The position numbers were made by a program, and so were the translations under genes. Of a stretch of DNA of 64,000 bases, positions 25,397 through 63,630 are shown piece by piece. Under the pieces are notes generated by a model. That model worked only from the letters and a program-made list of their open reading frames with translations. It was not told the origin of the DNA and did not search any database. Source of the DNA: a virus; IMG/VR virus record IMGVR_UViG_3300037200_000067, positions 10,260 to 74,259 of that record, one strand, 5' to 3'. The first letter of the stretch is position 1. Each line of letters opens with the position of its first letter.

Positions 25397-25720
25397 ATGT
25401 CCATTGATCCACGCGTCGCGCTCATCATCAAGATCGTCCTCGCGCTCGCCACGGCGATTGCTGGCGGGGGCCTGCCGCTGGCCGGCATCGTCTCCCCGCA
25501 GACGGCTGCGCTGATCGTCGCCATCGCGTCCTCGCTGACGGTGGTCCTCGGCATCATTCTGACGGCGTATAGCTCCTCGACTCCGGGCCCGCTTGCCCCG
25601 CAGGACGCGCCCGTCGTCGCCGCGGCAACCGCTCTGTCGGAACTGCCGCCAAGCGCCGCCGCTTCTGTCGTTGCGTCAGCAAAGAGCGCGGTGGTCGCGG
25701 CTGCCGCAGCGCACGTCTGA
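25397..25720 (+). CDS. putative holin
   Basis: two hydrophobic segments; lysis-cassette position. Confidence 0.55.
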   Translation: MSIDPRVALIIKIVLALATAIAGGGLPLAGIVSPQTAALIVAIASSLTVVLGIILTAYSSSTPGPLAPQDAPVVAAATALSELPPSAAASVVASAKSAVVAAAAAHV

Positions 25721-39421: not shown

Positions 39422-40296
39422 TTGCCTCCTTGCGCGCGCTTCATCTTCTGATTGAGAAGCGCAATCGCCCGATCGTACGACTCCTTCGGGAGCGCGGAAA
39501 TCTGCGGGATTTCAAACGCCGCACAGAACGCCGCGCGATCGGATTTGGTCGCTTCCAGAAGATCGGCAAGCGTCTGCAACTGAGCCGCATCAATGAGATA
39601 TTCCTCGATTGAGCCAGCCTCCGATCCAGCCGCCCTTCCGTCATCGTCGCCATCGGTCGGCGCGCGCGACGTAATGTTCAGCAAGAGCGACGCGGTGTAC
39701 CGTTTGCCATAAGTGATCGACGAGCCCATGGCTTGGACCGGGTTCTTTGAGCCTGTACTATCGTGCATCAGAACCATTGTCGTCTGTTCCTCGTGGCCTT
39801 CACGATGCCCAAGGATGCCCGTGACGGTGATCCGGCCATCGGGCGCAATGCCAGTCTTGAACGACAGCGCGAACCCGAATTTGGCGAGCGGCCCTTTGAT
39901 GGCCTCGTTGATATCGGCCAACGACGAATAGGGCGTCTCTTGAATCGGTTTGGCGTTCGGATTCGGCGGCTGCCTCTCCCGATCGGCCTTGGAATAGACG
40001 ATAATCCTGCCCGTCTGCGCGACGCCCGGAAGCTCGGGCTGCATAGCGCTGAAATCAGCGAAGAACGCGGCCTTGGCGCGCCTGGCTTGAACCCTGTCGT
40101 GCAGGTCCATCAGCTTTTCGAGCCGCGCGAGATCAACGCTCGGATCGACTAGCACGCGCTCGATCATCGCGGTGAAGTGGTCCTGCGCGACGGGCGCGGC
40201 ATGGCGTCCGTGCTGGGCGTGGACGACGCTTCCGCCGTCGTGAACGCCTTCGCCGACGACGATCGTCTCGACCGCCGCGTCCGTCGTTTCCGCCAT
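39418..40296 (-). CDS. ERF-family single-strand annealing protein
   Basis: Y..LADI, GH.E, QAMGSSITYGKRY, DDDG. Confidence 0.92.
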   Translation of the reverse strand: MAETTDAAVETIVVGEGVHDGGSVVHAQHGRHAAPVAQDHFTAMIERVLVDPSVDLARLEKLMDLHDRVQARRAKAAFFADFSAMQPELPGVAQTGRIIVYSKADRERQPPNPNAKPIQETPYSSLADINEAIKGPLAKFGFALSFKTGIAPDGRITVTGILGHREGHEEQTTMVLMHDSTGSKNPVQAMGSSITYGKRYTASLLLNITSRAPTDGDDDGRAAGSEAGSIEEYLIDAAQLQTLADLLEATKSDRAAFCAAFEIPQISALPKESYDRAIALLNQKMKRAQGGK

Positions 40297-52378: not shown

Positions 52379-52716
52379 AGCGTTGCACCATATTGATATT
52401 CGCCTTGTGGCTGTCCGGGTGCGGCTATTCGTCCGTAGAAAACGAGGCCGTGGGACAGGCCAAGAAGATTGCCAACGCCACCCCGTTGCTTTGCTATGAT
52501 CATATCGACTTCGATATGAGTCTCGGCGTCATGCGAAACGGCACCGGCTCAATGTCAACAGAGGACATGTGGTTCACGCTTCAGAACCCTGCTGATGCCG
52601 AGGTGCTTAAAGCCGCAGTCGCGAAGGGCGCGGTCGTCCGCCTTCAATACAAGGTGGCGCGCGTCACGTTGTGCATCGAAAACTATATCATCACCAAGGT
52701 CATATCGGTGGAGTAG
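52375..52716 (+). CDS. lipoprotein
   Basis: GTG 52375; lipobox LSGC. Confidence 0.7.
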   Translation: MKRCTILIFALWLSGCGYSSVENEAVGQAKKIANATPLLCYDHIDFDMSLGVMRNGTGSMSTEDMWFTLQNPADAEVLKAAVAKGAVVRLQYKVARVTLCIENYIITKVISVE

Positions 52717-52721
52717 CTTTT

Positions 52722-52931
52722 GTGGATCAGCCGGACTTCATCTACTTCGAGTGCCCAGAATGCGGCTTTAGCAGCGTTCAAAAATCGACGTTTGATGGTT
52801 CGGACGATTGTCCGCTTTGTGCGGGCGACAGCGGGCATGTGGTGAGGATGCGCGAGCGCGTTTGTCGCTCGACCGACAGGCCGGAGGGCCGCGATGCGCG
52901 GGTGGTCGCAGATTTGGGACCGATAACGTGA
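52722..52931 (+). CDS. Zn-ribbon protein
   Basis: CPECG...CPLCAGDSGH. Confidence 0.6.
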   Translation: MDQPDFIYFECPECGFSSVQKSTFDGSDDCPLCAGDSGHVVRMRERVCRSTDRPEGRDARVVADLGPIT

Positions 52932-58588: not shown

Positions 58589-59065
58589 GCGCACAATCGC
58601 CTCGGATGCGCGGGGGCGCTAAAAGGAAGCGCAATAGCCAAGGTTGGGCGATTTTTACAGGAAACGGGAGCGGCTGTCACCATGGATGCCCATCTATTTG
58701 GCCTGTTTACTTCGGTATTGGCGATAATTGCTGCCTGTATTTCCATCATTTTCGCAAGGAAAGCTATTCGGCGCTGTGAGGCGTGGGAAGCAGATTTGCG
58801 AGCAAGAGAGACAGCGATGCGGTCCAGGGGGAGCGGTACAGGGAGATGATCGATACAATCGTGGCGATCATTGCTATGGCTAGCGCAATCCTCGCAATGT
58901 TATTGGCCTTTTTAGCCTCCCGAGCCGCCACGCGCGCGTCCGCAGCCGCTGAGCGACTTAGTGCAACCTGCTCCGCTTGGATGGCGTCTTTCGCGCGGGA
59001 ATCTTCCTGATCTTTCTCGCTCCCGACTTGAAGACGCGCCGCTCTCGCGCTACTGACGCCTCGGA

Positions 59066-59226
59066 TGCGCGGCCGTTCGGAAGGACGAACCCGAGGCCTC
59101 GTCAGCCTTTGCGCAGCGGAGTGGGCGAATGGTAAGCCACACGGCTCTGAACGACGTGCCGTGGCACGCGAGTTCAAATCCTGCCTCCGGGTGCGAGCCG
59201 GTATCAAGCCCCGGCCCGCGCATCCA
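59066..59226 (+). ncRNA. tRNA-like RNA with a nested second tRNA-like unit
   Basis: 7-bp acceptor TGCGCGG/CCGCGCA + T + CCA; D-, anticodon- and T-like arms; inner cloverleaf at 59115-59191. Confidence 0.6.
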
Positions 59227-59235
59227 ACGCCTAAA

Positions 59236-59311
59236 TGGTGGAGACGGCCGGAATCGAACCGGCGACATTCTGCTTGCAAGGCAGACGCTCTCCCAACTGA
59301 GCTACGTCCCC
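59236..59311 (-). tRNA. tRNA-Ala(TGC)
   Basis: 76-nt cloverleaf GGGGACGTAGCTCAGTTGGGAGAGC...TTGCAA...GGTTCGATTCC...CTCCACCA; G3:U70; encoded CCA. Confidence 0.97.
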
Positions 59312-59316
59312 GAAAT

Positions 59317-59440
59317 GAGCGGGCGGCGTCACGCCGCTGGCCAACACCGTATCGCAGGTTTCCCAACGATTGCCCCGAAGGGTCGCGTGGCGATGTTGGC
59401 GACATCCACTGAGCCCCGCGCCTAGGGGCGCGCTCCGCTC
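59317..59440 (-). ncRNA. structured RNA upstream of tRNA-Ala
   Basis: 10-bp helix closing cUUCGg and gGAAAc hairpins; outer GAGCGG/CCGCTC helix. Confidence 0.5.
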
Positions 59441-60347: not shown

Positions 60348-61703
60348 ATGGGGCGGCGTAAAAATATTATTTCGCACAATAAACCCTGGCCCGCTGATAA
60401 AGTGGAGCGCAGAGATATTTCATCCCTCGTCGGATACGAACGGAATTCCCGGCTTCACAGCCCCGAGCAAATCGCCAAAATCGCAAAGTCGATCACGGAA
60501 TTCGGTTTCACCAATCCTGTCCTGATCGATGAATCTGGCGGCATCATTGCAGGCCATGCGCGCGTCGCCGCAGCCAAGTCTCTCGGCATAACCGACGTTC
60601 CCTGCATCGTCGCAACAGGATGGTCGCCCGCGCAAAAGAAAGCGTATGTCATCGCCGACAATGCCCTCGCTCTCGGATCGACTTGGGACGAAGCGATGCT
60701 CAAGATCGAACTCGGCGATCTGCAAGGCATGGGCTTTGACCTGTCGCTCACCGGATTTTCACTCGACCAGATCAACGGGTTTATGGTCGATCGGTCGGCT
60801 GGGCTCACGGACCCTGATGATGCGCCAGAACCGCCAGCGTCGCCTATCAGCAAGCTCGGCGATGTTTGGGTGCTGGGAGGCCATCGGCTGGCCTGTGGGG
60901 ATTGCACGAGCCCGGCTGTCGTTGCGTCGGCGCTCGGAGGCGCAAAACCGCATTTGATGGTGACCGATCCACCGTATGGGGTTAGCTACGACCCGACATG
61001 GGCGGACGGCGGGGCCGTGATGGCACGAGCCAAGCGCAAAAGTGGGGCCTTCGGGCCGGTTATGAACGATGACCGCGAGGATTGGACTGCCGCGTGGACA
61101 CTGTTCTCGGGGCAAGTTGCGTATTGCTGGCATGCCGGTCTCCATGCCAATACGCAACTTGCCTTCGAGTCGTGCGGATTTGAACTCCGCTCACAGGTCA
61201 TATGGGCGAAATCGCACTTCGCAATTGGGCGTGGTCACTATCACGTTCAGCACGAGCCATGTTTCTACCTCGTGAGAAAGGGCGCGACTGCGCGTTGGGA
61301 AGGCGACCGCAAGCAAACGACCGTCTGGGCGATCGACAAACCGTCGAAATCCGAAACCGGCCATAGCACGCAGAAGCCGATCGAATGCATGAAGCGCCCG
61401 ATCGAAAACAACTCGAAGCCCGGCGACTTTGTCTACGAGCCGTTTTCCGGAAGCGGGACCACCATCATCGCGGGCGAAATGACGGGCCGGCGCGTTCTGG
61501 CGATCGAACTGTCGCCAGCATATTGCGACGTGGGGTGTTGCCGATGGCAGAGCTATGTGGGCGGCACGGCGATCCTGGAAGCGACGGGCGAGACCTTCGC
61601 CGAAGTGAAAGCGAGACGGGAATCGTCGGATGGTATCGCTACGTCCGGCACGCCGACATTGCCCGCTACGAATCAGAGGGATGGCGATGGTCTGCGGATT
61701 TAG
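60348..61703 (+). CDS. ParB-like domain fused to N4-C/N6-A DNA methyltransferase
   Basis: N.R.HS, FGFTNP, IIAGHAR, ADN; TDPPY, HSTQKP, EPFSGSGTT. Confidence 0.93.
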   Translation: MGRRKNIISHNKPWPADKVERRDISSLVGYERNSRLHSPEQIAKIAKSITEFGFTNPVLIDESGGIIAGHARVAAAKSLGITDVPCIVATGWSPAQKKAYVIADNALALGSTWDEAMLKIELGDLQGMGFDLSLTGFSLDQINGFMVDRSAGLTDPDDAPEPPASPISKLGDVWVLGGHRLACGDCTSPAVVASALGGAKPHLMVTDPPYGVSYDPTWADGGAVMARAKRKSGAFGPVMNDDREDWTAAWTLFSGQVAYCWHAGLHANTQLAFESCGFELRSQVIWAKSHFAIGRGHYHVQHEPCFYLVRKGATARWEGDRKQTTVWAIDKPSKSETGHSTQKPIECMKRPIENNSKPGDFVYEPFSGSGTTIIAGEMTGRRVLAIELSPAYCDVGCCRWQSYVGGTAILEATGETFAEVKARRESSDGIATSGTPTLPATNQRDGDGLRI

Positions 61704-61745: not shown

Positions 61746-62186
61746 ATGAGCCGCTGGGGCGAGGGCCGCAAGCCACACGTTTCGACTGAGCAGAGCCGCA
61801 AATTCGTCGAGGCGATGGCGGCGACAAAAATGACTCAGGCGGAGATCGCGACGGTGATCGGCGTCTCGATCCCGACGCTGCTCAAATTCTATCGCCACGA
61901 ACTGAAAACCGCCGCGCTTAGAGCCAACGCCACGGTCGGCGCGACATGGTTCCAAGCCGCGACGGGCGGCGGAAAATGGCAAGACGCCAACATGACGGCC
62001 ATGATCTGGTGGACGAAGGTTCACATGAAGGCGAAAGAGCCGATCCAAGAGGTTCGCCATTCGGGCGCCATCGGCAGCTACGACATCACGAAATTGAGCG
62101 ATGAAGACCTTGACCACCTCCACGCAATCCTTAGCCGAACCCCTCTCATCGGTCACGATAAACGACCTGATGAGGGAGAAAGCTAG
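61746..62186 (+). CDS. terS: terminase small subunit
   Basis: HTH (IA.VIGVSIPTL.KFY..EL), TAMIWW.K; directly upstream of TerL. Confidence 0.75.
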   Translation: MSRWGEGRKPHVSTEQSRKFVEAMAATKMTQAEIATVIGVSIPTLLKFYRHELKTAALRANATVGATWFQAATGGGKWQDANMTAMIWWTKVHMKAKEPIQEVRHSGAIGSYDITKLSDEDLDHLHAILSRTPLIGHDKRPDEGES

Positions 62187-63630
62187 GCGCTACGCGACGC
62201 GGTCACGCGGAAACGAAACCCTAGCGGCGTTCATTCGCCTGATGCAGGCCGACTATCAGTTCGGCTGGTTCAGCCTGAATATCTGCGCGCGCCTCGACAA
62301 ATTTCTCGACGACGTCATCAACAAACGAAGCCCACGGCTGATGCTGTTCGCTCCGCCTCGCCACGGGAAGAGTCAGATCGTCTCGCGCATGTTTCCCGCC
62401 TATGCGCAGGGGCGATACCCGGACCTCCAGATCATCGCGACATCGTATGCCGCCGAACTCGCCAGCAAGACCAATCGCGAGGTCCAGCGCATTTTCGACG
62501 AACCAGCCTATCAAATGCTGTTCCCCGAAACGCGCCTGCCATCGGCCGGCGATCGGGCCTACGTCCGAAACAGCGATATCTTCGAGATCGTGGGCAAGCG
62601 CGGCGTCTATCGCTCAGCGGGCGTAGGCGGAGGCATTACGGGCATGGGCGGCGACGCGCTCATAATCGACGACCCGATCAAAGACGCAGCCGACGCAGCA
62701 TCGGCGGTTTACCGGGAAACCCTTTGGGAGTGGTATCAGTCCGTCCTCTACACCCGCCGCCAGCCCGGCGCGGGAATCGTGCTCGTCATGACGCGCTGGC
62801 ATCAATCGGACCTCGCGGGCCGGCTGCTGGAGGCGATGAAAAACGGCGCTGACCAGTGGGACGTCGTTTCCTACCCGGCCATCGCAGAACATGACGAGGA
62901 ATTCCGCAAGGAAGGCGAGGCGCTGCATCCCGAGCGCCACTCGCTCGAAAGCCTCTTGGCGACGCAGCGCGGCATGACCGCCTATGCGTGGGCGTCGCTT
63001 TTCCAGCAGCGGCCGGTTCCCCGCGAAGGCGGCATGTTCAAACTCGCGTGGTTCGCCGACAAGATCATTGATCCCGCAGCCGTGCCCACAACCGGCGTTT
63101 ATTGGTGGCGTCATTGGGACTTGGCCGCGACCAAAAGCAAAGACGCCGCGCGCACGGCCGGCGTGCTGATGGGCAAGACCCGTGACGGCCGGTTCATTGT
63201 TCGCGACGTCAAGCTCTGCCAAGAGGAAGCGCCCTACGTCCGGCGACTGATTCGCTCGACGGCTCAACTCGACGGCCGGGACGTGATGATCAGCTTCCCA
63301 CAAGACCCTGGGCAGGCCGGCAAGGGGCAGGCCTATGATCTGGTTTCGATGATGGCCGGATATGTCGCCAAGGCCGAACGGGAGGACGGGGATAAGGCGT
63401 TGCGCGCGGAGCCGTTCAGCGTACAATGCGAGGCTGGAAACATATATTTGGTGAAGGGCGACTGGAATAAAATATACGTTGACGAACTATGCGGATTCCC
63501 AAGCGGGAAGTGGAAGGATCAAGTCGACGCATCAAGCGGCGCATTCCTTCGGTTAACAATGGACGAGCCAAAATACGACGGCTCGCTCGATTGGGTTGGG
63601 GTTCTACCGCCTGTGAGGATGTCGGGGTGA
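62101..63630 (+). CDS. terL: terminase large subunit
   Basis: Walker A PPRHGKS, Walker B IIDDP, MTRWH, WDLA, DQVDA; true start may be slightly downstream. Confidence 0.95.
   Translation: MKTLTTSTQSLAEPLSSVTINDLMREKARRYATRSRGNETLAAFIRLMQADYQFGWFSLNICARLDKFLDDVINKRSPRLMLFAPPRHGKSQIVSRMFPAYAQGRYPDLQIIATSYAAELASKTNREVQRIFDEPAYQMLFPETRLPSAGDRAYVRNSDIFEIVGKRGVYRSAGVGGGITGMGGDALIIDDPIKDAADAASAVYRETLWEWYQSVLYTRRQPGAGIVLVMTRWHQSDLAGRLLEAMKNGADQWDVVSYPAIAEHDEEFRKEGEALHPERHSLESLLATQRGMTAYAWASLFQQRPVPREGGMFKLAWFADKIIDPAAVPTTGVYWWRHWDLAATKSKDAARTAGVLMGKTRDGRFIVRDVKLCQEEAPYVRRLIRSTAQLDGRDVMISFPQDPGQAGKGQAYDLVSMMAGYVAKAEREDGDKALRAEPFSVQCEAGNIYLVKGDWNKIYVDELCGFPSGKWKDQVDASSGAFLRLTMDEPKYDGSLDWVGVLPPVRMSG

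Follow-up and report, generated by a model that had tools for sequence, protein, structure and literature searches.

The window that we analyzed, a stretch of 64,000 nucleotides, corresponds to bases 10260-74259 of a 74,259-bp IMG/VR virus record that carries direct terminal repeats and is rated complete. The phage, with its complete genome of about 74 kb, is of peat origin, and DNA nearly identical to the window was found across several peat metagenome runs. The 161-nt element considered here (59066-59226) was compared with contigs of four peat runs, of which three span all or most of the element with zero differences to the window. Small plus-strand open reading frames run 5' of the element, and the neighboring ORFs match no family. 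On its 3' side lie a tRNA-Ala(UGC) gene, which is convergent to the element with the two 3' ends 9 nt apart, a ParB-methyltransferase gene and the large terminase gene, about 2.9 kb upstream of which the element is situated. No tyrosine or serine recombinase or integrase was found in the whole phage genome, and a reading of the element as an attP site was rejected for a phage devoid of such recombinases. The features of the locus are given below, where "frame" and "cargo" denote the shared and the variable parts of an RNA family described further on, and R2 is the model of that family.

59058-59065, plus strand: 5' flank extending the closing helix, paired with 59223-59230 as an inverted repeat
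59066-59072, plus strand: 5' strand of the closing ("acceptor-like") helix, paired with 59216-59222 (mean pair probability 0.95) and aligned by R2 to the family closing helix
59075-59090, plus strand: D-like arm of the frame, GUUCG-GAAGGA-CGAAC, with the family-consensus loop and a stem changed on both sides
59093-59109, plus strand: first part of the cargo, an anticodon-arm-like hairpin, GAGGC-CUCGUCA-GCCUU, of low pair probability (0.05)
59111-59114, plus strand: 5' strand of the connector helix, paired with 59191-59194, comparative support being absent
59117-59189, plus strand: second part of the cargo, derived from a tRNA; its D- and T-loop residues are canonical, its acceptor has 5 bp and its anticodon loop 14 nt (Rfam tRNA, 31.8 bits)
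59191-59194, plus strand: 3' strand of the connector helix, as seen from its pairing
59197-59215, plus strand: T-like arm of the frame, GCCGG-UAUCAAGCC-CCGGC, which stacks on the closing helix without intervening bases (pair probability 0.94)
59216-59222, plus strand: 3' strand of the closing helix, from pairing and R2 alignment
59223-59230, plus strand: 3' flank (TCCAACGC), its TCC paired with the GGA at 59063-59065
59236-59311, minus strand: genuine tRNA-Ala(UGC), separate from the element (ARAGORN; Rfam, 73.8 bits)
60348-61703: ParB-methyltransferase gene, downstream of the element
62101-63630: large terminase gene, downstream of the element

A weak promoter-like pair is visible at window positions 59027-59056 on the plus strand, either as CTTGAA, 17 nt and CTACTG or as TTGAAG ... 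GCTA; it stops about 10 nt short of the closing helix and was not reported by the consensus scanner. Just upstream of tRNA-Ala, positions 59317-59440 (minus strand) are GC-rich and ORF-poor, with no R2 match. Elsewhere in the window, at 40195-40282 (plus strand), ARAGORN calls an 88-nt tRNA-Gly(UCC), which has no Rfam tRNA match and resembles unremarkable GC-rich sequence that may be coding on the opposite strand; this call is probably a false positive.

The original prediction, which described the element as one cloverleaf nested within another, placed nine helices here, and all nine were confirmed in place. The outer unit comprises a closing helix of 7 Watson-Crick pairs, a D arm of 4 pairs (or 5, as GUUCG/CGAAC), an anticodon-like arm of 5 including one G-U, a T-like arm of 5, and a connector of 4, also including one G-U; the inner unit comprises an acceptor of 5 pairs, a D stem of 3, an anticodon stem of 5 and a T stem of 4 with one A.C mismatch. 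The same prediction read the 3' end as a discriminator T followed by a CCA tail, and this part is not supported. The closing helix continues outward to give 10 contiguous pairs (59063-72 with 59216-25), and 13 of 15 positions are paired over 59058-72 with 59216-30; consequently, the T and CC are paired with the upstream GGA and there is no free tail. The family, too, lacks a conserved CCA, and the "CCA end" of the element is probably incidental. A permissive scanner for cloverleaf shells (variable region of 4-130 nt), with tolerances chosen after the element had been seen, reported just two loci in the real window, namely the genuine tRNA-Ala and the shell of the element, whereas 60 dinucleotide shuffles gave 0.23 shell loci per 128 kb and none with CCA. 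The margin is large, and a tRNA-shaped shell like the outer one is rare in shuffled sequence.

A pattern joining the inner and outer T-loops of the element retrieved a second locus, L076, which was also matched by R1, a model made from the single sequence of the element. The T-like hairpin of L076 is almost identical to that of the element, and a 15-mer of this hairpin occurs in at least 120 IMG/VR contigs. Among the matches listed, 86 distinct elements have a perfect upstream partner for the seven bases 3' of the hairpin, and in 75 of these 86 a conserved module, CG-GCGUG-GAAGGA-CACGC, follows directly after this partner. The shared frame thus opens with a 7-bp closing helix, free in sequence, followed after two bases by a D-like hairpin (5-bp stem, loop GAAGGA or GAUGGA), then the cargo, and then a T-like hairpin stacked on the closing helix. 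This last hairpin, GCCGG-UAUCAAGC-CCGGC, is near-invariant, with an A before it and the 3' strand of the closing helix directly after. The frame gives a 7+5 bp coaxial stack as in tRNA, and it is this stack that tRNA enzymes measure. Entire elements measure 88 to 224 nt, and what lies between the two modules is unrelated across members. As members were chosen for pairing, the 100% paired figure follows from selection, which does not, however, explain either the covariation or the fixed position of the conserved module: among 36 members both sides have changed in 6 of 7 closing-helix pairs and in 5 of 5 D-like stem pairs, and the pairing collapses when the register is slid. The G-U pairs and the strand-specific model match assign the RNA to the plus strand.

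This tRNA-frame family is absent from Rfam 15, a typical member having no tRNA match at E<=10, and motif and keyword searches of a literature collection found no description of it. Members are present, unannotated, in Caulobacter phage DMCA and the Komagataeibacter phages phiKX1 and phiKX2, and also in prophage-like regions of alpha-, beta- and gammaproteobacteria and other phyla; 150 genomes drawn at random from the class of one holder contained one member. The phiKX1 member occupies the minus strand of LC644975 at about 52667-52810, and that of DMCA the plus strand of PQ480021. In 15 of 75 member loci a same-strand large terminase gene follows downstream, and lysozyme genes are also found near members. 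Judged from sequence, then, the family is large, widespread in phages and prophages, and uncatalogued. One member, L176:7905-8000 (minus strand), has an Rfam abiF RNA motif 14 nt downstream, at L176:7856-7891 (minus strand), with 41.1 bits, above the gathering score.

R2 was built from 36 members, with the window, L066 (a terminase relative described below) and L076 excluded. It matches 59066-59222 on the plus strand with 50.1 bits (E 1.3e-8) over model positions 1-118 of 118, and as this match is the only one in the whole phage the element is single-copy. In return, R1 matches 36 members at E<=1e-3. On the strength of these reciprocal matches, what had been described as an outer cloverleaf is the frame of the tRNA-frame family. 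The D-like hairpin, GUUCG-GAAGGA-CGAAC at 59075-59090, differs on both sides of its stem from the consensus GCGUG/CACGC; the T-like hairpin is found with its surroundings at 59196-59222, with one extra C in the loop relative to the family; and the closing helix has the consensus GCGG/CCGC inner half. The 9-nt T-loop variant recurs in 12 metagenome contigs; the cargo of the element was seen in none of them. Comparative evidence of this kind leads us to regard the element, with high confidence, as a real RNA and a member of the family. A covariance model of the outer shell had been proposed as the way to find relatives, and the family model R2 does find the element, with pairs that covary in 36 members. 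The accompanying view, that the layout stands alone and belongs to no named family, was right in that no Rfam family covers the element, but the shell belongs to a large phage family in which at least five other members carry tRNA cargo.

Taken as a tRNA, the outer shell is aberrant, with C8, G14, C37 and a 9-nt T-loop in place of U8, A14, a purine at 37 and a 7-nt loop, and ARAGORN finds nothing in three insert-deleted versions, relaxed threshold included. Of 69 family members, 1 has an anticodon-arm-like hairpin straight after its D-like arm, which is the chance rate; such a hairpin is not a family feature. The inner unit is matched by the Rfam tRNA model (RF00005) at 59117-59189 (plus strand) with 31.8 bits against a gathering score of 29 (per-genome E 2.8e-6), and it retains U8, A14, G18G19, A21 and a UUCAAAU T-loop. 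By default ARAGORN misses this unit, as tRNA scanners had been expected to do; at a relaxed threshold it reads a tRNA-Ser(UGA)-like fold, and once 7 nt are deleted from the 14-nt loop it returns tRNA-Gln(CUG), in keeping with the Gln-like character first attributed to the unit. The R2 match to the shell and the Rfam tRNA score of 31.8 bits together bear out the core of the original prediction, a composite RNA in which a tRNA-derived unit is nested in a tRNA-shaped shell. The inner cargo is very likely to derive from a tRNA. Its acceptor has 5 pairs, followed by A.G and G.G mismatches at 1-72 and 2-71, and runs into the connector helix; it has neither a 7-bp acceptor with a free 3' end nor a 7-nt anticodon loop, this loop being 14 nt, or 12 nt with a sixth pair. 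The signs of decay, namely the T-stem A.C mismatch, the 5-bp acceptor, the 3-bp D stem and the 7-nt insertion, fit a relic as well as a mimic.

Thermodynamically, an alternative fold of the cargo is preferred (MFE of -68.6 versus -61.2 kcal/mol with the nested fold enforced), with pair probabilities of 0.15 or less for the inner helices and about 0.95 for the closing helix and T-like arm; the element as a whole, with a folding z-score of -0.67, is no more stable than shuffles. No relative with the same cargo was found, and because the cargo is common to no relative, the anticodon-like arm, the connector and the inner cloverleaf are without covariation support. Covarying homologues, which the original prediction asked for, were found for the outer frame and not for the cargo. 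Given the lack of covariation and the disfavored fold, the case for the inner cloverleaf is made by the Rfam score and by the analogy of five other nested members of the family.

While tRNA-like cargo is rare (1 of 75 in an unbiased sample), a targeted pattern found more cases. Inside their R2 shells, L076, L291, L295, L294 and L298 reach Rfam tRNA scores of 47.2, 46.5, 41.4, 39.3 and 38.2 bits, respectively, and in all five the inner tRNA keeps the D and T arms with an anticodon loop of only 4-6 nt. Inner units of the L076 type have full-length acceptor stems with a discriminator base. Four of the five share a common 133-nt architecture that has covarying helices and includes a hairpin with a GACG tetraloop; RNAalifold reproduces its nested layout, and 14 of the pairs have changed on both sides. 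With five other members bearing a disabled tRNA as cargo, the nested, non-decoding tRNA is, on this comparative reckoning, a recurrent and selected design within the family. The element differs from these five in that its hairpin lies 5' of the tRNA unit, a connector helix is present, and the anticodon loop is enlarged rather than shortened; it is a separate variant of the nested-tRNA design. In L076, L291, L295 and L298 a hairpin with an invariant GACG tetraloop is seen 3' of the disabled inner tRNA, its 4-bp stem covarying as AUGG/CCAU, AGGG/CCCU and CCAU/AUGG.

The only IMG/VR relative of the large terminase, at 38% identity, is found in L066, which at the same map position carries a 180-nt nested cloverleaf RNA (L066:4248-4427) matched by R1 with 26 bits (E 0.006). 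The MFE fold of this RNA recovers the nested cloverleaf (z -3.1), and it has a GAGGC/GCCUU hairpin stem as in the element, while neither R2 nor the Rfam tRNA model recognizes it; we count it as a possible counterpart of the element and not as a family member. Beside it in the L066 provirus, at L066:1735-3938 (minus strand), lies a divergent, PARIS-like two-gene defense pair coding for an AriA-like ATPase (PADLOC E 4.8e-24) and an AriB-like nuclease (E 6.9e-10). Adjacency to PARIS as a family trait was rejected, AriA and AriB being absent among the neighbors of 75 members. No copy of the element itself was found in 64 ParB-methyltransferase loci or in five whole related phage records of 60-75 kb, and the metagenome scan produced no relatives of the large terminase. 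BLAST of the element against cultured phages gave 28-nt chance matches only. DNA patterns combining the inner D and T loops, or the three outer loops, retrieved nothing, and one combining the outer D loop with the anticodon-like loop retrieved 66 loci, none matching R1 at E<=0.01.

The surroundings and termini of family members offer clues to processing. A real tRNA gene is present within 500 nt of 9 of 75 members, always on the same strand and in four cases at a distance of only 5-17 nt; the tRNA-Ala next to the element is, unlike these nine, on the opposite strand. The closing helix is extended by at least 3 bp in 24 of the 75, and among members without such an extension, whose DNA is GC-rich, 43% have T at -1 and 59% have A as the discriminator base. 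We interpret the tRNA neighbors and base enrichments as signs of tRNA-type processing.

The stable tRNA-like RNAs of phages T4 and T5 were described decades ago and are not known to have a function, and T5 RNA1 and the T4 rnaC and rnaD presumably resemble the frame RNAs. When run on 3.5 kb of phage T5, R2 singles out RNA2 (NC_005859 32959-33083), weakly (17.1 bits, E 0.007), with ends within 1-4 nt of the annotation. This RNA, annotated as "tRNA-like stable RNA with unknown functions", has like the frame a 7-bp closing helix, a "CG", a D-like hairpin with a GA..GGA loop, an insert and a 5-bp T-like hairpin abutting the closing helix; it lies in the tRNA region of T5 and, unlike the element, has different hairpin sequences and no tRNA-like insert. 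The match is too weak for a claim of homology. Set against canonical tRNA (RF00005), the inner unit scores above the gathering threshold, and the outer frame mirrors both the 7+5 bp stacking of acceptor and T stem and the order of the D and T hairpins. What separates the inner unit from a canonical tRNA is the missing free acceptor end, the anticodon loop of 14 nt and the T-stem mismatch, and the frame is recognized as tRNA neither by Rfam, for a typical family member, nor by ARAGORN, for the element with its insert deleted. The element resembles tmRNA in enclosing a large insert within a tRNA-like acceptor/T frame with a reduced D element, but differs in having no G3.U70 (the 3-70 pair is C-G), no conserved CCA and no tag reading frame. 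A tmRNA reading was rejected: ARAGORN finds none, and a weak Rfam tmRNA_permuted match on the opposite strand is caused by the T arm of tRNA-Ala.

YrlA-type Y RNAs of bacteria and phages are likewise non-coding RNAs with a tRNA-like module that has no free CCA end and an abnormal anticodon loop, and the YrlA module is a substrate of tRNA enzymes (PMC4201824). They are, however, defined by the motif GNCGAA(N)G and by a Ro60 (TROVE) gene that neighbors them within about 4 kb on the same strand, and their module is joined via the anticodon stem, that of the element via the acceptor stem (PMC4201824). The motif is not present in the element, in which GACGAA at 59085-90 is followed by CC and not G, and a Y-RNA or RNA-repair reading was rejected, as the whole phage has no TROVE or RtcB domain and no Y-RNA-type Rfam match was obtained at E<=10. 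The engineered "tRNA scaffold" (PMC3401473), used for recombinant RNA expression, places a foreign RNA in a tRNA body that is processed and stabilized by tRNA enzymes, a logic that may equally apply to the frame; being man-made, with an insert that replaces the anticodon stem of a genuine tRNA, it serves as an analogy only.

As the best explanation overall, to which we give slightly less than an even chance, we propose that the element is a processed, stable frame RNA that shows a non-decoding tRNA body. It would be transcribed together with the upstream plus-strand genes or from its own weak promoter, and tRNA-maturation enzymes would trim it to the frame, with RNase P cutting on the 5' side of the closing helix. 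The frame would confer stability on the RNA, and the cargo, displayed as a non-decoding tRNA body, would occupy a tRNA-recognizing protein, for which a tRNA-targeting defense nuclease or toxin and a tRNA-processing or -modifying enzyme are candidates. Phage tRNAs allow escape from the tRNA-cleaving immunity of PARIS, and AriB is reported to cleave tRNA-Lys (PMC11455837). A look-alike or decoy function of the element, considered by itself, is conceivable but somewhat doubtful. The crippled anticodon loops of the five nested members argue against a cleavable substrate mimic of anticodon nucleases, but still leave room for a mimic that binds via the tRNA body. Carried to its full extent, the proposal would make the frame a phage display and processing cassette for swappable cargo, the disabled tRNA body an uncleavable competitive inhibitor or sponge of PARIS/AriB-, PrrC- or VapC-like nucleases or of another tRNA-recognizing host factor, and the element a two-headed version with a full cloverleaf frame and a tRNA-Gln-like body; we put this forward as a speculation that is improbable in its entirety.

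The main rival, itself possible rather than likely, holds that the frame is functional and the tRNA-like cargo a neutral, decaying passenger. The frame might then act as RNase P/RNase Z punctuation or as a stabilizing end in a late transcript, between lysis-side and packaging genes, and the cargo would be a tRNA captured by recombination from the tRNA cluster of the phage and now eroding. Such a view accommodates the unrelated cargo of different members, their proximity to lysozyme genes, the large terminase gene that follows on the same strand in 15 of 75 loci, and the modest 31.8 bits, mismatches, 7-nt insertion and thermodynamically disfavored cloverleaf of the inner unit itself. It sits poorly with the five nested members, in which the tRNA body is kept, its stems covary and shortening is confined to the anticodon loop, a pattern that indicates selection and not random decay. 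Neutral cargo would moreover be expected to shrink, yet a cargo of 60-150 nt is the rule, and the next gene downstream of the element is a convergent tRNA rather than a co-transcribed mRNA. That the element is instead a precursor cut into two RNAs, the inner unit being freed by RNase P and 3' processing and the frame halves held together by the closing helix, strikes us as quite improbable. There is a precedent in the YrlA module of M. smegmatis, which is embedded in the RNA, cut by RNase P and given CCA (PMC4201824), and the full-length acceptor stems and discriminator base of L076-type inner units would suit such a fate; the inner acceptor of the element, by contrast, has 5 pairs and A.G and G.G mismatches and continues into the connector, and the product would carry a 14-nt anticodon loop of no known use.

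Two further readings retain hardly any probability. A working decoder, either an outer tRNA-Thr(CGU) or an inner tRNA-Gln(CUG), could appeal to the outer loop CUCGUCA, which has U33 and the proper 7-nt size, to the CUCUGAA with which the inner loop begins, and to the tRNA-Gln that ARAGORN reads after removal of 7 nt. It comes close to being refuted by the outer unit, which is without U8 and A14, has C37 and a 9-nt T-loop and is rejected by ARAGORN when its insert is deleted, by the general lack of an anticodon arm and CCA in the family, and by the missing free 3' end of the inner unit. The supposition that the locus encodes no RNA at all, and represents chance inverted repeats or a DNA site (pac/cos or attP) upstream of the packaging genes, draws on its location about 2.9 kb from the large terminase and on a whole fold no stabler than shuffles; it is disfavored by the R2 match (E 1.3e-8), the compensatory changes and strand-specific G-U pairs of the family, the rarity of shell-like layouts in shuffles and the missing tyrosine and serine recombinases.

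The nested "tRNA inside a tRNA" is now tied to a large, conserved frame family absent from Rfam, and disabled tRNAs as a recurrent cargo turn an oddity into a testable class with cultured members. Should the frame prove to be a natural scaffold for RNA display, it would also offer a ready tool for stable RNA expression in bacteria. In the cultured temperate Caulobacter phage DMCA (L271:3999-4131; PQ480021, about 25554-25686), the frame RNA lies between an ISL3-family transposase gene and an integrase gene.
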